A DNA stretch of 64,000 nucleotides. It comes from a virus. The translations under genes were made by a program, and so were the position numbers. Location: the IMG/VR virus record IMGVR_UViG_3300044911_000835, positions 1-64,000 of that record, one strand, 5' to 3'. This document shows, piece after piece, positions 5,547-22,638 of the stretch (positions are counted from its first letter, which is position 1; the number at the start of each line of letters is the position of its first letter). The notes under the pieces are model-generated. The model saw only the letters and a program-made list of their open reading frames with translations. It had not been told where the DNA came from and did not search any database.

Positions 5547-7067
5547 ATGTCAAAATTCAATCAAGCAAACACTTTAGCAAAAGCTTTTTCTGCTAATGGT
5601 AACCTTCAGTATGTTAAGCCTGAAAAAGAACAACTATATGAATTAGTTGTTAATACTCTTTACGGGCGTGATACCTTTTACGAAACCACTGATGCTAAAG
5701 CACAGCGACTTTCAGCTATAGTAGCTAAGCTCGTTGCGTCTAATGAATTCAACTTCCTAGCAAACTTGGCTGTGCACGCAAGGCATGAAATGAATGTGCG
5801 AAATATGCCAGTCATGCTAGTTGACCAGACTGTTAAAGCTTTGAAAGCTCAAGGTAAGAACTTTGCTGGAACTCGTACCCTTGTAAGCCAAGTTGTTGGT
5901 CGCGTTGACCAAATCACCGACTTACTAGCTTTACTAGGCGACAAGGCTAAAATGCCTATGGCGCTAAAGCGCGGGTTGAGTGATGCTTTTAACAAGTTTT
6001 CAGAGTACCAATTTGCCAAGTACAATCGTGCTGGTAAAGTTACTTTGAAAGACGCAATGCGTATCGTACATCCAGTTCCTAAGGATGTGGATATGTCTAT
6101 CCTTTTTGACAAGATCATGAAGGGTAACTTATCGACCCCCGATACGTGGGAAGTAGCACTATCTCGTGATGGTAACACCAAAGAAGTTTGGGAAGGCCTA
6201 ATCGACCGCAAGGTACTAGGGTATCAAGCTACTTTAAAGAATTTGCGTAACATGCTGAATGCTGGAGTTAGTGCAGACCATCAGCGTCAGGTTGCTAAGT
6301 ACATTGTTGACTTCGCCGCTTCTAGCAAATCACTACCATTTGAGTTTCTAGCTTCTATGGAAGCTATTAAGAGTCTTGGTAGTCAGATTCTCAACAATGC
6401 ACTTATTGAGGCTATGGATGCGTCCGTAGTTAACGTACCTTCACTAGGAAACAAAGTTCTAGTTCTACTAGATACTTCTGGTTCTATGGGATTTATGGAA
6501 GGGCGTGCAGTTAAGAACGCAAGCTTCTTGTCAGCAGTATTAGCAAGTGCTAGTAAGAACTGTGAGAAATTCACACTTATTAGTTTCGCTTCTAATGCTA
6601 GACGGCATACTATTAATACCTCAGAACGTGTATTTTCTACCTATGAAAAGCTTGTAAAAGCCAGTGGTGGTGGAAGTACAGATTTTCTTGCTGGATTAAT
6701 AGAGGCTACTAAGGACGGTGTGGAATATGATACAGTCATTGTCCTAACAGATAATGAAATGGATAGCTTTAAGCACTCCTACAATGTAGGTAACTTCCAG
6801 AAGCAGGCCACTAGAGTTATCATTGACTGTTCTGCGTCCGAAACTAGCATTGCTAGCCCCTATGCTGGGTGGCATCATCTTGCAGGTTGGTCACCTAATA
6901 TGTTCCGGTATCTTGATGCAGTTCGTGAAGGTACTTCGATGGTTGAGATGTTAAGTCAACCATTTTCTAGTATGCTAATGAAACGCGAACTAGCGTCTAG
7001 GCGCTGGTCTAGTAAAGAAGTACCTACTTCCAACGTACCGAAAGCTGGACTAACTCATAGCGATTAA
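5547..7067 (+). CDS. rsr: Ro60/Rsr-like TROVE-domain RNA-binding protein with C-terminal vWA domain
   Basis: AR.EMNVR, F..FSEYQFAKYNR, LKD.MR..HP.P, PDTWEV.LS, L.YQA.LKNLRN; vWA MIDAS DTSGSM, GGST, LTDNE. Confidence 0.93.
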   Translation: MSKFNQANTLAKAFSANGNLQYVKPEKEQLYELVVNTLYGRDTFYETTDAKAQRLSAIVAKLVASNEFNFLANLAVHARHEMNVRNMPVMLVDQTVKALKAQGKNFAGTRTLVSQVVGRVDQITDLLALLGDKAKMPMALKRGLSDAFNKFSEYQFAKYNRAGKVTLKDAMRIVHPVPKDVDMSILFDKIMKGNLSTPDTWEVALSRDGNTKEVWEGLIDRKVLGYQATLKNLRNMLNAGVSADHQRQVAKYIVDFAASSKSLPFEFLASMEAIKSLGSQILNNALIEAMDASVVNVPSLGNKVLVLLDTSGSMGFMEGRAVKNASFLSAVLASASKNCEKFTLISFASNARRHTINTSERVFSTYEKLVKASGGGSTDFLAGLIEATKDGVEYDTVIVLTDNEMDSFKHSYNVGNFQKQATRVIIDCSASETSIASPYAGWHHLAGWSPNMFRYLDAVREGTSMVEMLSQPFSSMLMKRELASRRWSSKEVPTSNVPKAGLTHSD

Positions 7068-12860: not shown

Positions 12861-13160
12861 ACTTAAGCCTAGTGCTTAAGTTGTAAGTCTAAATTGAAGA
12901 GGTTGAGACAGGGGTTCGATTCCCCTCACCTACAAAGACGATGTGGGTGTCTTGGGTTCGATCAGCGTTGGATATCTAGACTGAGAATCGGCAATGTAGA
13001 AGCCGTAATGTAAGTGCTCTGCAACAGCAGGTCAATTCCTTTGTTGTTAAAGCTTACGAAGAAACAAAGCATTTTAAATGCAAACGACGAAGTATACGCT
13101 ATCGCTGCCTAAGCTTTAGCTGAGGTTTTGAGACTGTTCCTTATTACCCAATACAGTCTC
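12861..13160 (+). ncRNA. ssrA: circularly permuted (two-piece type) tmRNA
   Basis: T arm and acceptor 3' strand (12910-12934) precede the acceptor 5' strand GTGGGTG (12943-12949, G3-U70); tag ORF 13080-13112 = ANDEVYAIAA*. Confidence 0.88.
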
Positions 13161-13362: not shown

Positions 13363-13827
13363 ATGAAAACACTTAATATAAAAGAAATAACAGAATACTT
13401 AGCTAATGAACCGTTAGAGTCTAATGTTTATATTGGTGTAGATTCTGAGCGTTATAAAGATAAAGGTAAGTGGTTTGCTGATTATACTGTTGCGGTAGTT
13501 ATTCACCGTAATGGTAACAATGGTTGTAAAGTATTCGGCGGAATTGATACTGCTCAAGATTTTGATAGCAAATCAAATAAACCTATGATGCGTATGATGA
13601 ATGAAGTTTATCGTGCATCAGAAACTTATCTAGCTCTAGCAGAACTTTTAGTAGATCGTCATGTTGAAATTCACTTAGATATTAATCCTAGCGAATTGCA
13701 TGGTTCTAACTGTGCTATGCAACAAGCTATTGGGTATATTAAAGGTGTATGTGGTCATACACCTAAACTTAAGCCGGAAGCATTTGCGGCGTCTTATGCT
13801 GCTGATAGATTGAAGGAATATATTTAA
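13363..13827 (+). CDS. YkuK (DUF458) family RNase H-like protein
   Basis: YIGVDS, RMMNEV, EIHLDIN, KPEAFAASYAAD. Confidence 0.88.
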   Translation: MKTLNIKEITEYLANEPLESNVYIGVDSERYKDKGKWFADYTVAVVIHRNGNNGCKVFGGIDTAQDFDSKSNKPMMRMMNEVYRASETYLALAELLVDRHVEIHLDINPSELHGSNCAMQQAIGYIKGVCGHTPKLKPEAFAASYAADRLKEYI

Positions 13828-13915: not shown

Positions 13916-13989
13916 GTCTCACTAGTGTAATGGAAGCACGGCGATCTCCAAAATCGCAAGCCGAGGGTCGGTACCTTGGTGGGATGCCA
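13916..13989 (+). tRNA. tRNA-Trp(CCA)
   Basis: GCGAT-CT CCA AA-ATCGC, GCCA; variant T loop. Confidence 0.87.
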
Positions 13990-13998
13990 GTATTAATA

Positions 13999-14064
13999 AG
14001 GTGAAAAGGGTAGCTCCCCTGATAGTGCTCAATCCACTATCTAGCCTAAGAGTTCGATTGAGGA
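13999..14064 (+). promoter_or_regulatory. HNH leader RNA motif, copy 1
   Basis: three-way junction AGGT-GAAAA-GGG/CCC-CT-GATAGTG/CACTATC-TA-GCCT; loop CTCAATC pairs with GATTGAG at the RBS. Confidence 0.65.
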
Positions 14065-14071
14065 ATAAAAG

Positions 14072-14647
14072 GTGTATAGAGAAATAAAAGAAGAAGAATT
14101 GAAGTTAGATAAACAGAGAGGTTATTTATACTTCATTGATAAAGATCACCCTCTTAAAACTGGAAATGCCTCCTACGTTTTTCTACATAGGCACATGGCC
14201 TCTATAAAAGCAGGCTACTGGCTATCTAGTAAGGAGCATGTTCACCATATAGATGAGAATAAATTAAATAATTCTCCAGAAAATCTACACATATGTTCTG
14301 CTTCTGAACACGGTAAGTTACATAGTGCGCATTTATGTATAGAAAAACTCTGTAAACAGTGTGGAATACTTTTTAAGCAAAAAGAGTCTACACAACTATT
14401 TTGTTCTACTGAGTGTAGTAGCAAGTATAGAGTTTTACTAGATGGATTAACTAAGGAAGAATTAGAACACTTATTATGGACTACTAATTATTCTGAACTA
14501 GGAAAACAATTTAAATGTAGTGATAATGGTATAAGAAAGTGGGCGAAAAGACTTAAATGTACAGTACCTCCTGCATACTTCCATAGTAAGGGCTACTCTG
14601 TAGAAAAGAAATTATCAATGTATTTAGAAATTAAAGAAAAAGGATAA
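14072..14647 (+). CDS. HNH homing endonuclease
   Basis: YVFLHR, HVHHIDENKLNNSPENL; CxxC...FCSxxC zinc finger; C-terminal HTH. Confidence 0.9.
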   Translation: MYREIKEEELKLDKQRGYLYFIDKDHPLKTGNASYVFLHRHMASIKAGYWLSSKEHVHHIDENKLNNSPENLHICSASEHGKLHSAHLCIEKLCKQCGILFKQKESTQLFCSTECSSKYRVLLDGLTKEELEHLLWTTNYSELGKQFKCSDNGIRKWAKRLKCTVPPAYFHSKGYSVEKKLSMYLEIKEKG

Positions 14648-14651
14648 ACGA

Positions 14652-14918
14652 ATGACTAAAGCTGTATATTGTTCACAAATGGTAGATTATGAAGGTATTG
14701 TAGAGGAAGATATTGGCTTTTTTGTAGAGGGTAATCGTTTCGAGTTTAAAGTAGACGTATATGAAGATATGATTACTTTCCGAGACTGTTTAGGCCGTTT
14801 CGTACCAGTTGACATTACTCAAATTGATCAAGTTATTGATGCTTTAGTTACTGCTAGGTCTTTGATGCTAGTGCCTATGGCTCCAGATACTTATGTTGAA
14901 TCTGATTTGGGTTGCTGA
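14652..14918 (+). CDS. hypothetical protein
   Basis: AAGGA RBS. Confidence 0.65.
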   Translation: MTKAVYCSQMVDYEGIVEEDIGFFVEGNRFEFKVDVYEDMITFRDCLGRFVPVDITQIDQVIDALVTARSLMLVPMAPDTYVESDLGC

Positions 14919-15114
14919 ACAGTTAGAATCTGAACCACCCCAAATACTTGAAGAATTTCAAGGATTTGAGGTAATAGTAGAGCTTAATGACCCATCCCAG
15001 TATTTTTCTAAGTACCAAATTTGGGCAGAGATAGAAAAGCTGCTAAAGCAAGCCCCTATTAAAGATAGATTAAATACAGTAGAGTACGTGAAAAACAAGT
15101 TGAAGAATTTTTAA
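14893..15114 (+). CDS. hypothetical protein
   Basis: ORF in operon. Confidence 0.55.
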   Translation: MLNLIWVAEQLESEPPQILEEFQGFEVIVELNDPSQYFSKYQIWAEIEKLLKQAPIKDRLNTVEYVKNKLKNF

Positions 15115-15115
15115 C

Positions 15116-15144
15116 TTGTTTTTTTAGTTTAAAGCCTCTATAAT
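15116..15144 (+). promoter_or_regulatory. sigma70-type promoter
   Basis: TTGTTT-17-TATAAT. Confidence 0.75.
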
Positions 15145-15174
15145 ATTATTTCTGAGTTTGAAAAAGGATTTGAA

Positions 15175-15369
15175 ATGACTTTTTGGAAAGTTCCTGGTCA
15201 ACTATTAATTAATGTATTATGTGAGATAATTCAAGCAAAGTTACTAGGCTTTGAAAAGCTCGCAATTGAATTTAGGCCTGAATTAGAGAACCAGTTGTTT
15301 TCTAGGGGATTTAAAGTTTCTACTATTAAACTTCCTAATAATTATTACACTGTGGTGGATCTAAAATGA
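15175..15369 (+). CDS. hypothetical protein
   Basis: behind promoter and RBS. Confidence 0.6.
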   Translation: MTFWKVPGQLLINVLCEIIQAKLLGFEKLAIEFRPELENQLFSRGFKVSTIKLPNNYYTVVDLK

Positions 15370-15575
15370 AAGTAGGTACTTGGGTTCAGTTTGAGAATGA
15401 AAATAAACCTATAGGTTATATCATTGGTAAAAAAGAGCATAAGTATCAGCTTAGACCAACATCTAAAGAATTGATTAGAACTAACCTACATGAACTAGAG
15501 TTTGATGTAGATGGTTATGCTACTGAGTATGAACGCAAGAATAAGATCAATCGTATCATAGAATTTCAAGCTTGA
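15366..15575 (+). CDS. hypothetical protein
   Basis: coupled ORF. Confidence 0.6.
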   Translation: MKVGTWVQFENENKPIGYIIGKKEHKYQLRPTSKELIRTNLHELEFDVDGYATEYERKNKINRIIEFQA

Positions 15576-15600
15576 TACGCAGTTCAATATTCTGTATAAT
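15572..15600 (+). promoter_or_regulatory. sigma70-type promoter driving a 1-kb non-coding region
   Basis: TTGATA-17-TATAAT. Confidence 0.8.
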
Positions 15601-15618
15601 ATTGTTTATGAAATCGAG

Positions 15619-15788
15619 AAAGGTTTCATAAAGCACACTAGAAGGGTACTTAACCTACTAATCGACGGATTAGTAGCCTATGTGAGAGAACCCTTTAATA
15701 GGGTTAGGGTCACTATCAAACCGGCCGGCATGATACAAATAGGTGGTTAAACAGGTTCGATTCCTGTAGTGTGCTTTATGAGACTTTT
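15619..15788 (+). ncRNA. tRNA-like RNA with T arm and large internal domain
   Basis: about 20-bp terminal stem including GCACACT/AGTGTGC; T arm ACAGG TTCGATT CCTGT; TTAACC/GGTTAA helix. Confidence 0.65.
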
Positions 15789-15789
15789 G

Positions 15790-16425
15790 CGTACTGCTCT
15801 ATGATGCGGAGTACCAGTTGTCACAATAGACCGGAGGTTTAGCGTGCTCAAGGTAATATCCCAACATACATTAGTATTACTAATGATTACGTGAAAGTTT
15901 TATATAACGTCCAGGCTAGGACGCTAAACCAAGCGGACTGTTTATAGAGGTCGTCCGTAAACTACTATACATCATTTTATCCTGATGTTAAACGGATAGG
16001 GTACATAGGCGTTGGAAGCGAAATGTACCTAATAAGGTAAGGAAAGTAAACGGAGGATGGGAGCTAGTGAAACGTACTGGAACCTTATAGCAGATACCCC
16101 ACCGGCCTTAGAAATTGATAGTGAACTTAAGATAGCTATCGCCCTTTGTCAGAGTAGGTTAAAAACTGAAATCTTACTTAAATGAGGGCCAGTAAGTGAT
16201 AGTTATTTTGCCCATAACTGGAACCTGGCTTAGGTAGAATGTCGCAAATTCTACACTGTAGGAAGTTCGTAATGAAAGTTGTTAGTACCAAGAACTATAA
16301 ATATCGTTGAACTATCAGTCTTATAGTACTAGTAGACTTAAAACAACTAGGAAATTGGCTTCCCGAGTATGATAGTAAACTGCTCCGACCTTACTAGAAG
16401 TCGTTAAACTAGTACCCAGTATTCT
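15790..16425 (+). ncRNA. large orphan structured RNA candidate (about 630 nt)
   Basis: no ORF; dense stems e.g. GGTTTAGCGT/ACGCTAAACC, GGTACAT/ATGTACC, ATAAGGT/ACCTTAT, GTAGAAT/ATTCTAC, AGTTGTT/AACAACT. Confidence 0.65.
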
Positions 16426-16426
16426 A

Positions 16427-16508
16427 GAGTGCTGTGGTTAGGGCAGTTAGGTAACTAACAGGTTAAGACTCCGGTGTGCCCGGACGAGCTGCTCTAACCA
16501 CAACGCTC
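16427..16508 (+). ncRNA. orphan stem-closed RNA
   Basis: GAGTGCTGTGGTTAGGGCAGT/GCTGCTCTAACCACAACGCTC with two inner hairpins. Confidence 0.55.
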
Positions 16509-16609
16509 CCGTATATCAATTGGTATTGATGCTTTCTGATTCCACTATATGGATAATGTCTTTGACAAGTTAGTATCAATTCCACAACATTCTAATAAAA
16601 GGATTTAAT

Positions 16610-16807
16610 ATGCGTAAAAAACTATTAAGGTCTTGTGGATGTAGAACTTGTATGCGGGGCAGGCGTACCGCATATGGCCATGTAAGGTTACATCAAGCGG
16701 AAAAGCAGCTAAGACAACAATCTAGAATTAATATTGATAAAGCTATAAAAGGTAATGACCTAGATTTAATTGACATTATCGAAGTTTCTACGGATTACAC
16801 AGACTAA
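16610..16807 (+). CDS. small basic protein with CxCxxC
   Basis: AAGGA RBS. Confidence 0.65.
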   Translation: MRKKLLRSCGCRTCMRGRRTAYGHVRLHQAEKQLRQQSRINIDKAIKGNDLDLIDIIEVSTDYTD

Positions 16808-17415
16808 TGCAAATTATTTCACCTTTTAAAGATTACTATGATGTAGGTATGCAATATGGTTTCGACCCCAAATTGCAATGGATTAGGCGTACTTCTGACA
16901 TTGAGGAGTCTAGTCGCTGGCATCATTCTGAATCAATTATTCTACATTTTTGTGGTAAGACTTATAGAGGTATAGTTGTAAAGTCCGCTTCCTACTACAT
17001 TAATAGTATGGAAGTAATTTGGGATAATGAACACTACGATAAATATTGTACAGAAAATAAGGTAAAACCCTTAGAGATTAGTTGGCTAGATAAGTTTTGG
17101 ATAACTACTAAAGTTAGACCTAAATCCAAGATCATACAGTTAGGACTAATTGGTGAGTCTGACATTTTAAATGATAAATATAGTTCTCCGGTAATTTTAC
17201 AAACTAATAAAGGACTAGAGATTAATCCTTCCTTGAAGTTTATTCAGTTTTATAAAGTCTATGACCCAGTAACTACATATCAAAAAATTAGTGAATACTT
17301 TGGTAACAAGTTTTTTAATGAACCTAAAATGGTTCCAATTTCAGATAAAGATAGGATTAAACAACATGGATTTACTAAAGAAAGTTTCCGTATGGCTAAG
17401 TCCAGCAATAAATAG
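16807..17415 (+). CDS. hypothetical phage protein
   Basis: MQIISPFKDYYD start and HGF..ESFR end. Confidence 0.75.
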   Translation: MQIISPFKDYYDVGMQYGFDPKLQWIRRTSDIEESSRWHHSESIILHFCGKTYRGIVVKSASYYINSMEVIWDNEHYDKYCTENKVKPLEISWLDKFWITTKVRPKSKIIQLGLIGESDILNDKYSSPVILQTNKGLEINPSLKFIQFYKVYDPVTTYQKISEYFGNKFFNEPKMVPISDKDRIKQHGFTKESFRMAKSSNK

Positions 17416-17464
17416 CTTTCTAATTATGTACTGGTTTAGCCTAGAGTGGCTTAAAGATAAATTT

Positions 17465-17539
17465 GCTTCGTTAACTCAGCGGTAGAGTAACTCCTTTACA
17501 CGGAGAAGGTCGGCGGTTCAATCCCGTCACGAAGTACCA
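17465..17539 (+). tRNA. tRNA-Val(UAC)
   Basis: TT TAC AC loop, ACCA. Confidence 0.93.
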
Positions 17540-17556
17540 ACTAATTAAGGATTTGA

Positions 17557-17808
17557 ATGGAATTTGATATTGAGATTAAGAAAACTACCTATGATAGGGT
17601 TCGCTTAAATGACGAAGATATTAAGAAGGTAGTTTTACACTATATTAGTCGTAAGTATAATATCCGTAAAGATGATTGGGTTGCAGAAGGTGACCTTACA
17701 CGTGAGGTTGAATACCATGGATCTCACAGTTGGTTTGAGCAAGAAGTTATTAGAAAAGTAACTGATTTCGATGTTGCATTACTAACACTTCTTAGAGAAT
17801 TAAAATAA
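17557..17808 (+). CDS. hypothetical protein
   Basis: AAGGA RBS. Confidence 0.7.
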   Translation: MEFDIEIKKTTYDRVRLNDEDIKKVVLHYISRKYNIRKDDWVAEGDLTREVEYHGSHSWFEQEVIRKVTDFDVALLTLLRELK

Positions 17809-17812
17809 TATT

Positions 17813-17886
17813 GGCTCTATCGTATATAGGTATTACCTCGGATTGTCTATCCGAAGAACACAGTTCGAATCTGTGTAGAGTCGCCA
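17813..17886 (+). tRNA. tRNA-Asp(GUC)
   Basis: TCGGA-TT GTC TA-TCCGA, GCCA. Confidence 0.9.
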
Positions 17887-17894
17887 GGTTAAAT

Positions 17895-17970
17895 AGTAAC
17901 GAATGCAATTAGGTGAGCAGCTTGATTCATAATCAAGTGCTATTCGGTTCGAGGCCGAGCGTTACTACCA
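17895..17970 (+). tRNA. tRNA-Met(CAU), probably elongator
   Basis: CTTGA-TT CAT AA-TCAAG, ACCA. Confidence 0.78.
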
Positions 17971-17973
17971 AAT

Positions 17974-18035
17974 TAACTACTAGAGTTAAGCGCGTTAACT
18001 TAATAAGCAGCGGTCGGTAAGCTTTCTAGTAGTTA
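17974..18035 (+). ncRNA. small stem-closed RNA
   Basis: TAACTACTAGAG/TTCTAGTAGTTA. Confidence 0.4.
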
Positions 18036-18129
18036 CCACAAGTAGGCTTCACTTCCTTATCTGCTTCCAGCTGATTAGCTCGTACCTGGAAGTACGGGCG
18101 GGATAAGAGTAAGGAAGCCTACTTGTGGT
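18035..18129 (+). ncRNA. long irregular hairpin overlapping the tRNA-His 5' end
   Basis: 16-bp ACCACAAGTAGGCTTC/GAAGCCTACTTGTGGT; inner CTTATC/GATAAG and CTTCCAG/CTGGAAG. Confidence 0.55.
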
Positions 18130-18200
18130 CGTAACTTAACAGGCAAAGGCTCTGGCTGTGAACTAGAGAGATGCGGATTCGACTTCCGTCGATCACCCCA
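18124..18200 (+). tRNA. tRNA-His(GUG)
   Basis: GTGGTCG/CGATCAC, C73, CCA; -1 base is U. Confidence 0.87.
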
Positions 18201-18257
18201 ATAATTTTCGGTCAGCGCCGAACCAACCAAACTGTCAAGATTAAATAAAGTCACGCA

Positions 18258-18334
18258 CGGCCGTTAGTTTAACTGGAAAGAACCTATGCATACGAAGCAT
18301 AGAAATGTACGTTCGAATCGTACACGGTCGGCCA
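18258..18334 (+). tRNA. tRNA-Arg(ACG)
   Basis: TATGC-AT ACG AA-GCATA, GCCA. Confidence 0.87.
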
Positions 18335-18338
18335 ATTA

Positions 18339-18405
18339 AGGCGAAAAGAGTCATTCTCCTGTTCCTTCCTCGGAACTAGCCTAAGTTTTAGCCCTTGAGG
18401 AGGGG
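18339..18405 (+). promoter_or_regulatory. HNH leader RNA motif, copy 2
   Basis: AGGC-GAAAA-GAG/CTC-CT-GTTCC/GGAAC-TA-GCCT; loop TTCCTC pairs with RBS GAGGAG. Confidence 0.65.
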
Positions 18406-18411
18406 TGTATT

Positions 18412-19095
18412 ATGAATGAAGAAATAATAGAAGAAATATATAATAAATTAGTTGAACGATTTGGTATTGGTGACGTGTTTTTACCTAAGTATGGAAAAAG
18501 AAAATCAGACTTAACCTGGAAACAGTTCATTAAAGCTGCTTTAGAACTAAAGTTAGAGGAACTCACTATTTATTGTGGATTTACGTTTAGTAAAGGCCTA
18601 AGTAGAGCTTTAAAAGAAAAATATCCTGGTATTATACAAGATAAAAATGGAGAATACTGGTTTCTATACCTATCTAAGTTTCTTAGTAAGAAAAGATGCT
18701 CACAATGTCTAGAAGTATTAGAATATAAAGAATTTAACTATAATTCATCAACAAAAGATGGATTTAGTTCTACTTGTAGACATTGCGACAAAGAATACAG
18801 AGACCTAAATAAAGAGCATATATTAGCACATAGTAAACAATATTACAGTAAGCATAAAAAAGAAATTAGTGCTAATAAAGCTAAACGTAGGGCTACAAAA
18901 CTACAAGCAACCCCAAATTGGGCAAACCTGATAGCCATAAAAGAAATTTATCGAACTTGCCCTGAAGGTTATCATGTAGATCACATAGTTCCCTTACAAA
19001 ACGACTTAGTATGTGGGCTTCATTGTGAATTTAATCTTCAACATCTATCTGCTAGCGAAAATTTAAGTAAAGGAAATAGATTTGAAGTAGATTAA
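18412..19095 (+). CDS. HNH homing endonuclease
   Basis: CSQC...CRHC zinc finger; ATPNW; YHVDHIVPL...VCGLH...NLQ..ENLSKGN. Confidence 0.9.
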   Translation: MNEEIIEEIYNKLVERFGIGDVFLPKYGKRKSDLTWKQFIKAALELKLEELTIYCGFTFSKGLSRALKEKYPGIIQDKNGEYWFLYLSKFLSKKRCSQCLEVLEYKEFNYNSSTKDGFSSTCRHCDKEYRDLNKEHILAHSKQYYSKHKKEISANKAKRRATKLQATPNWANLIAIKEIYRTCPEGYHVDHIVPLQNDLVCGLHCEFNLQHLSASENLSKGNRFEVD

Positions 19096-19129
19096 GACCA
19101 AATTAAAGCAAGATTGAATAAATTCAATC

Positions 19130-19158
19130 TTGCTTTTTTGCGCTATGGCGGGTATAAT
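19130..19158 (+). promoter_or_regulatory. sigma70-type promoter
   Basis: TTGCTT-17-TATAAT ATTATTTCT. Confidence 0.75.
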
Positions 19159-22014: not shown

Positions 22015-22638
22015 ATGGCTGCTGCAAAGAAGTCAGTTAAAGTAAAAGATACGGAAGATTTATCCGATTCTAATATTGAGAAAGTAATTGCACTTCTTTC
22101 AGCAGAAAAGCCCTGTACTAAAAAAGAGGCTTGCAGTATTCTAAGAATCACTTACAATACTACTAGATTGCAGACTATTATTGACAACTTTCTAGAAAAG
22201 AAAGATAGAACTGCGAAGCTTAGGGCTGAGAAAGCACATAAACCTGCCACAGAAGCAGAGATTCAGTACTCTATTATGGAGTACCTGGGGGGTGCTACAG
22301 TTTCTGCAATTTCAGAGTCTCTTTATAGGTCAGCATCTTTTGTAGATAAAGTTCTAGAAAGATGTGGAGTACCACGTAGGGCTACAGGCTGGTCATACCA
22401 ACGTCCTCAACTAATCCCCGAAGAAGCGATTAGAACTTCTTTTGAGATTGGAGAGAAAGTATGGTCAGCGCGTTATGAGTCACTAGCAACGATTAAATCA
22501 GAAGTAACAAACCAACCACATCCTTCTAAAGTATATCGTGTATACCTAGAAGATGAGTCTTGGCAGCAATCAGCGTACCAACCAGCCGAGGAATTAGCTT
22601 CCTTGCAACACTTAACTAAATATGGAGTTTCAATTTAA
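22015..22638 (+). CDS. T5 D2-like DNA-binding protein
   Basis: TKKEAC.IL.I.YNTTRL, HTH ISESLYRS; synteny. Confidence 0.7.
   Translation: MAAAKKSVKVKDTEDLSDSNIEKVIALLSAEKPCTKKEACSILRITYNTTRLQTIIDNFLEKKDRTAKLRAEKAHKPATEAEIQYSIMEYLGGATVSAISESLYRSASFVDKVLERCGVPRRATGWSYQRPQLIPEEAIRTSFEIGEKVWSARYESLATIKSEVTNQPHPSKVYRVYLEDESWQQSAYQPAEELASLQHLTKYGVSI

Follow-up and report, generated by a model that had tools for sequence, protein, structure and literature searches.

Hairpins that sequester the ribosome-binding site (RBS) control I-TevI, I-TevII, I-TevIII and segB of the T-even phages and mobE of phage Aeh1 (PMC2988022). The DNA considered here, hereafter the window, is a stretch of 64,000 nucleotides (nt) from a virus (IMG/VR record IMGVR_UViG_3300044911_000835, positions 1 to 64,000) in which two RNA elements, el1 and el2, precede two endonuclease genes, HNH1 and HNH2. 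They are two copies of a widespread and uncatalogued phage leader RNA which forms the 5' edge of free-standing homing endonuclease cassettes. In common with the T-even leaders (PMC2988022), it is a cis-acting RNA structure predicted to bury the Shine-Dalgarno sequence (SD) of a phage homing endonuclease gene located within the transcript of other genes. The T-even leaders are single hairpins displaying no common sequence or fold, whereas a conserved three-way junction is found here together with an additional hairpin (P4) and a loop-loop helix, and the same leader precedes nucleases of four different folds over many phage lineages. In T4, a late promoter inside the structure gives rise to shorter transcripts with a free RBS; in contrast, no sigma-70-like site was found within el1 or el2, in a scan which did not extend to the phage-specific late promoters of these uncultured phages, and the full structure would be transcribed where a promoter is seen.

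Several other classes of RNA offer partial parallels. In the ColE1 RNA I/RNA II and HIV-1 TAR/TAR* complexes, fully paired loops of 6-7 nt form a stacked and unusually stable helix. These kissing complexes unite two molecules and are devoted to replication control or were engineered, whereas the contact described here is intramolecular, scaffolded by a junction and SD-masking. With the preQ1-II/III, SAM-II/V and guanidine-III riboswitches the leader shares a small size, a conserved junction, variable stems and an SD engaged by a distal loop or strand. Unlike those riboswitches, it has no Rfam match and revealed neither an alternative fold nor a decoy, its junction sequence varies among variant groups, and mobile nucleases rather than metabolic or transport genes are located downstream. 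HEARO, the guide RNA of IscB (omega RNA), is several hundred nt long and is likewise a structured RNA adjoining an HNH-type nuclease gene; the present element differs in being a 5' leader of roughly 70 nt with an anti-SD loop. The masking of the SD of a homing endonuclease gene is known, and the novelty lies in the junction-plus-kissing-loop architecture, in its portability over nuclease superfamilies and in its abundance.

Architecture of the two leaders

Both elements lie on the plus strand and share the same layout, in which the stem P1 closes a junction containing the hairpins P2 and P3, connected by the strands J12, J23 and J31, and is followed by the hairpin P4; the loops of P3 and P4 are designated L3 and L4. 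The el1 junction (13999-14047) was delineated from the sequence, the minimum-free-energy fold of the isolated element, covariance models (CMs), covariation and RNAalifold. Its P1 pairs AGGU (13999-14002) with GCCU (14044-14047), and the connecting strands are GAAAA (J12, 14003-14007), CU (J23, 14019-14020) and UA (J31, 14042-14043). P2 is a GGG/CCC stem (14008-14010/14016-14018) capped by the loop UAGCU, while P3 (GAUAGUG/CACUAUC, 14021-14027/14035-14041) presents L3, CUCAAUC, at 14028-14034. The P4 hairpin (14052-14066) consists of GUUC (14052-14055), L4 (GAUUGAG, 14056-14062) and GAAU (14063-14066) and contains the SD, GAGGA, at 14060-14064. L3 is complementary to L4 and, since this complement is located in the loop of P4, the contact is an intramolecular L3:L4 kissing loop.

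The el2 junction (18339-18382) was delineated from the sequence, the minimum-free-energy fold of the isolated element and the CMs. P1 is formed by AGGC (18339-18342) and GCCU (18379-18382), P2 by GAG/CUC (18348-18350/18356-18358) with the loop UCAUU, and P3 by GUUCC/GGAAC (18361-18365/18372-18376) with UUCCUC as L3 (18366-18371); J12 is GAAAA (18343-18347), J23 is CU (18359-18360) and J31 is UA (18377-18378). The P4 hairpin with the SD (18391-18406) is composed of GCCC (18391-18394), L4 UUGAGGAG (18395-18402) and GGGU (18403-18406), and L3 is complementary to GAGGAG (18397-18402), one U.G pair being included. The SD spans the P4 loop and the 3' strand of P4 in both copies. A local alternative exists in el2, the hairpin CCCUU-GAG-GAGGG (18392-18404), in which the SD is buried as well. 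The nuclease start lies 24 nt (el1) or 29 nt (el2) beyond the end of the junction.

A preliminary description of this DNA had attributed to both stretches the order P1-GAAAA-P2-CU-P3-UA-P1' with a loop complementary to the RBS, and this was confirmed base for base. Its proposal of a pseudoknot is retained in that the P3 loop pairs with the RBS region, and amended in that the partner is the loop of P4, so that a kissing loop replaces a plain H-type pseudoknot. Scores of 41.4 and 54.2 bits for el1, and of 64.7 and 60.6 bits for el2, were obtained with two CMs, and the junction alone is the minimum-free-energy fold of both elements. The corresponding z-score is just -1.3, and the 12-nt core pattern by itself is no rarer than chance within the window. 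The two copies alone consequently prove little and the proof has to come from relatives.

Two other readings of the junction region were discarded. A T7-like promoter could be read in CACUAUCUAG of el1, a sequence which is not present in el2 or in the relatives. A hammerhead-like reading of GAAA and CUGA does not fit, on inspection, the order of the strands round the junction.

Support for the fold and the kissing loop in relatives

Relatives were gathered by pattern scans and by HNH2 protein searches of IMG/VR and metagenomes; the earliest pattern scans returned mostly chance matches inside coding regions. A 19-mer covering J12, P2 and J23 of el1 was then adopted as a probe which is unbiased as to the downstream gene. 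As MAFFT alignments of divergent leaders proved structurally wrong, CM-fitted alignments and a custom descriptor parser were used instead.

The three-way junction, its covariation and the complementarity of L3 and L4 are observed throughout the resulting collection. In the CM set of 103 hits (86 distinct), standard pairs occupy 97.9% of the cells, compared to 75.9% after shuffling. Double-sided changes are found in 11 of the 11 modelled pairs, P1 and P3 covary strongly, and the covariation score reaches 0.59, against 0.18 for shuffled sequences and 0.08 or less when partners are slid. The identical junction is returned independently by RNAalifold.

The kissing loop was analyzed in 70 distinct leaders with 39 different L3 sequences, the parser having failed on 21 of 94 copies, namely those with stem mismatches. 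At least 6 contiguous pairs link L3 to its own SD region in 89% of the 70 leaders, and the entire P3 loop is so paired in 61 of them. When L3 is confronted with the SD regions of other leaders, just 10% of the combinations attain 6 pairs. Positions 3-6 of L3 each display 3-5 different pair types. A P4 stem of at least 3 bp is present in 68/70 relatives, versus about 37% in shuffled controls, and the distance from the end of the kissing helix to the start codon is mostly 7-9 nt. A near-twin of el1 on a 114-kb contig (L009/L071) combines the same junction with a compensatory L3/L4 change, from CUCAAUC/GAUUGAG to CUUAACU/AGUUAAG.

These features allow the family to be defined as P1-GA..-P2-(C/U)U-P3-(C/A)UA-P1' followed by P4 with a loop complementary to L3 and then, about 7-9 nt after the end of this loop, by the start codon of a same-strand nuclease gene. 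Both el1 and el2 display every element of this kissing-loop leader.

Distribution and novelty

Exact copies of the 19-mer are present in at least 120 IMG/VR stretches, in which P1, P3 and L3 have diverged. A search of 185,579 species genomes of bacteria and archaea found it in just one, on a 4-kb contig of a metagenome-assembled genome. Escherichia phage EP_H11 is its only carrier among 50,697 deposited phage genomes, phage T5 itself gives no match to the CM designated R2, and blastn searches of both loci against the 50,697 phage records returned tRNA matches only. A number of variants, termed group B (e.g. L018, L020, L021 and L023), differ in their J12 and P2 sequences, retain the overall architecture and are not picked up by the CMs R1 and R2.

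The preliminary description had envisaged that the motif might already be an orphan of Rfam. No Rfam 15 family is matched at the gathering threshold, including hammerhead, twister, pistol, hatchet, riboswitches and HEARO, and nothing relevant appears at E = 10 or less in searches covering 4.6 kb, seven variant loci and 91-nt windows of el1 and EP_H11. Literature searches for the motif, for its sequence and for a kissing-loop leader linked to HNH genes revealed no paper naming it; an unnamed entry among the 8,495 IMG/VR candidate RNAs (PMC10690425) is possible.

Downstream genes and modularity

HNH1 (14072-14647, plus strand, 191 aa, GUG start at 14072) is a free-standing homing endonuclease gene of the HNH_3 type, its N-terminal catalytic domain matching Pfam HNH_3 (E = 4e-11) and the protein matching phrog_15471, an HNH endonuclease (E = 4e-28). 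HNH2 (18412-19095, plus strand, 227 aa, AUG at 18412) is a free-standing homing endonuclease gene of the EndoVII-type His-Me finger class, with a match to phrog_1035, endonuclease VII (E = 1.5e-20), and a C-terminal catalytic His-Me domain. BLASTP reveals no significant similarity between HNH1 and HNH2 (E = 0.96), in agreement with the dissimilarity and the different domain orders reported initially.

All the 71 open reading frames (ORFs) located downstream of the leader in the 19-mer sample are nuclease-like. EndoVII-type His-Me finger proteins account for 44 of them, HNH_3 for 8, HNH_3 combined with AP2 for 3 and GIY-YIG (with NUMOD1) for 5, and the remaining 11 are single cases which include HNH, HNH_2, zf-His_Me, T5orf172/MUG113, LAGLIDADG, PDDEXK_5, DUF559 as well as three weaker matches to nucleases. 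It follows that the leader goes with free-standing homing endonuclease genes generally, over the four unrelated folds His-Me/HNH, GIY-YIG, LAGLIDADG and PD-(D/E)XK. The idea of an element traveling with HNH genes was correct as to the link with nucleases and too narrow as to their type.

Of 32 HNH2 relatives detected in viral contigs, nine reside on one complete 114-kb phage contig, where the leader precedes 7 of the 11 endonuclease genes. The near-twin of el1 on this contig is located in front of an ORF of the HNH2 type, not of the HNH1 type. As the same junction precedes ORFs of both types, leaders and ORFs must recombine. In two lake metatranscriptome libraries, X16 and X17, variant contigs (13990-14061) leave the window just after P1' and go on with the L4 of the 114-kb relative, with loose ends at 14049 and 14061; the population consequently carries both leader/ORF combinations.

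The sole leader copy of a cultured phage, that of EP_H11, is located at about 22490-22575 of OP688485.1 and is followed by an ORF encoding 303 aa (L276 2572-3483, WBU87647.1). This ORF has no Pfam or PHROG match and no relative in the 50,697 phage records, and may be a nuclease of undescribed type.

Genomic context and transcription

In the window, el1 directly follows a tRNA-Trp gene (13916-13989, plus strand) and el2 a tRNA-Arg(ACG) gene (18258-18334, plus strand), both predicted by ARAGORN. P1 starts 9 nt (el1) and 4 nt (el2) after the CCA end of the tRNA, in agreement with the initial statement that both elements begin within 10 nt of it. Neither this proximity nor the trailing AAG noted in the two copies could be extended to the family, a tRNA being found directly upstream in 6/121 copies and about 40 different upstream contexts being represented. 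A strong sigma-70-like promoter, the -10 box of which ends 5-7 nt before P1, is present in 16 of 66 contexts and in none of the control windows. With such a promoter, P1 would be the extreme 5' end of the transcript and the whole structure would be transcribed.

The gap separating a scaffold-like gene from the gene of the major head protein, which corresponds to the 5' untranslated region (UTR) of the major head mRNA, is the largest context. At this site, 59 of 75 alleles possess neither nuclease gene nor leader and retain the promoter and a structured 5' UTR of their own; in the nuclease-bearing alleles the junction begins 8 nt past the -10 box. Wherever both allele types could be compared, the leader was found solely in those with an endonuclease gene, which identifies it as the 5' limit of the inserted cassette. 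Such cassettes are located in units transcribed at very high levels, the major head mRNA being the parallel of the tRNA cluster of the window. In one major head 5' UTR (L291, IMGVR_UViG_3300020162_000752), the gene-less allele holds a short stretch resembling the middle of an EndoVII-type nuclease ORF, a remnant compatible with cyclic invasion, decay and loss.

Lake metatranscriptome contigs span tRNA, leader and nuclease gene for both el1 and el2, and one contig of library X16 (record 8, 18151-19149) joins tRNA, leader and HNH2. These data are contigs from libraries which can contain DNA; ends, strand and levels are not readable from them and uncovered parts are uninformative. The bridging contigs are consistent with co-transcription of tRNA, leader and nuclease gene.

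A probable translational brake and its alternatives

The leader is probably a portable cis element which, by masking the SD, keeps translation low for a mobile nuclease located in a highly transcribed unit, and we infer that this repression is constitutive rather than switched. P1 closes the domain, with P2 as a short conserved hairpin and P3 presenting a loop of 6-7 nt; the SD is held by P4, a few nt downstream, whose loop pairs with the whole P3 loop. Since both the kissing helix and the P4 stem bury the SD, 30S subunits would only rarely bind it. Because P1 closes the domain, the fold should be independent of the flanking sequence, and a nuclease gene landing in a strongly transcribed unit would accordingly bring its own brake and its own structured 5' end. 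Convergent evidence for a brake is provided by HNH2 paralogues devoid of the junction, where the SD is buried by plain hairpins (L041, 14 bp, z = -4.5; L034, z = -4.0). Copies of the complement of L3 which could act as a second partner number 0 upstream and 2 downstream, versus 0.9 and 1.4 expected; the lack of such a partner favors a single folded state over a built-in two-state switch. The comparable control of T-even homing endonucleases and the lack of a promoter inside the motif likewise speak for a brake. The limit on translation of a nuclease within a tRNA operon that was originally proposed survives as its best reading in the form of a brake acting in a strongly transcribed unit, the adjacent tRNA being incidental.

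Several points weigh against a simple brake. Repression is deduced from pairing alone, the CM-fitted alignment is biased to the modelled structure, and relatedness among many copies means that the counts given above are not independent events. The bare L3:L4 duplex averages -5.7 kcal/mol by nearest-neighbour calculation, compared to -7.1 for SD:anti-SD, and is the stronger of the two in just 10 of 41 cases; masking would therefore be leaky unless stacking and tertiary contacts stabilize it. Finally, masking of the SD would require no more than a plain hairpin, whereas the conservation of J12-P2-J23 goes far beyond the needs of pairing and the P2 loop is frequently self-complementary. This conserved segment suggests something more than a brake.

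It is possible, if unlikely, that the leader is a regulated switch in which J12-P2-J23 binds a trans factor that stabilizes or opens the kissing complex, thereby timing or dose-tuning nuclease synthesis. Candidates for such a factor are a protein, a small ligand and another leader copy recruited through a self-complementary P2 loop. The exact conservation of the 19-mer in at least 120 copies, despite the free divergence of P1, P3 and L3, represents more constraint than base pairing requires, and leaders of T-even homing endonucleases are known to set the timing of these genes. A palindromic loop tetramer (AGCU, GGCC or UGCA) is present in 8 of 13 distinct P2 hairpin types, versus 1.15 expected, a ratio which overstates independence as the P2 types are partly related; the tetramer is AGCU in el1 (loop at 14011-14015), is also carried by L018, L021, L023 and others, and is missing in el2 and in 5 of the 13 types. 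These self-complementary loops hint at a putative loop-loop dimerization. The candidate ligand core, J12-P2-J23, is very conserved in the main group and different in group B, where the architecture is kept with other J12 and P2 sequences, which argues against one conserved ligand pocket. No alternative partner of L3 and no promoter within the motif were found, and the downstream genes are not metabolic. As a particular form of regulation, a sensor of dose or time, in which copies associating via the P2 loop or via a shared junction factor would set the state of the kissing loop, and with it nuclease synthesis, according to the amount of leader RNA or factor during infection, is doubtful. Were it true, selfish genes encoding nucleases of four unrelated folds would possess a dedicated riboregulator.

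We consider it improbable that the leader is a stability or processing element, i.e. a structured 5' end protecting the mRNA once transcription has begun at P1 or the tRNA 3' end has been processed, an RNase site or a small self-cleaving ribozyme freeing the nuclease mRNA. The short distance between the tRNA 3' end and P1 in the window (4-9 nt), the contexts in which a promoter makes the junction the extreme 5' end, and the hairpin with which the 5' UTR of gene-less alleles likewise starts would all suit such a function. Stability alone does not, however, account for a P3 loop tracking the SD region in 39 sequences, and a transcription start at P1 leaves nothing upstream to remove. Self-cleavage, raised as an option in the preliminary description, is equally disfavored as no Rfam ribozyme family is matched even at E = 10 or less and few junction nucleotides are conserved over the variants.

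A DNA-level element, either a homology patch or a nuclease or recombinase site for swapping endonuclease ORFs behind resident leaders, would explain the joining of one junction to unrelated ORFs, the marking of the cassette boundary by the leader and the metatranscriptome contig which matches the window to 14049 and proceeds with the L009-type P4 sequence, but is very improbable given that G.U pairs are confined to the sense strand, that the element is invariably on the coding strand and shortly upstream of an ORF and that the loop tracks the SD, all of which are RNA-level features, and that recombination at the leader is possibly a side effect of its conservation.

Other features of the window

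The phage of the window is a distant T5-like phage from lake water, its DNA polymerase being about 45% identical to those of T5-like phages. A bidirectional terminator-like hairpin (19105-19136) is located 3' of HNH2. An RNase H-like ORF (13363-13827, plus strand; PF04308, E = 3e-16) is positioned directly 5' of tRNA-Gln and tRNA-Trp. The tRNA cluster also includes a permuted two-piece tmRNA gene (12880-13112, plus strand; RF04321, 78 bits for a gathering score of 47), and an ORF of 506 aa (5547-7067, plus strand) with TROVE and Ro60 vWA domains represents a phage Ro60 homologue among the tRNA genes. A near-perfect hairpin of about 100 nt (18028-18137), located between tRNA-Met and tRNA-His, displays weak matches to microRNA precursors on both strands. 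In an ORF-poor region at about 15790-16520, the contig word depth is 10-60 times that of the flanks in four metatranscriptome libraries, up to 4243 in X17 for about 45-70 in the flanks, which suggests a very abundant non-coding RNA.

Significance

Free-standing homing endonucleases rank with the commonest mobile genes of phages, and their control has been investigated in only a few T-even cases, every one having a hairpin of its own. The leader described here is one conserved and portable RNA module, recruited by four unrelated nuclease superfamilies in many uncultured phage lineages. As it is easily recognised by sequence, it can be used in annotation to mark mobile nuclease cassettes and to locate their 5' boundaries. 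It is also a natural and compact intramolecular kissing loop whose specificity is reprogrammed by co-changing two loops, a property of interest for RNA engineering. The copy in EP_H11, a cultured E. coli phage, makes the leader accessible to bench tests. The finding provides a testable model of selfish genes which would limit their cost in the most highly transcribed units of the phage, among them tRNA arrays and the mRNA of the major capsid protein.

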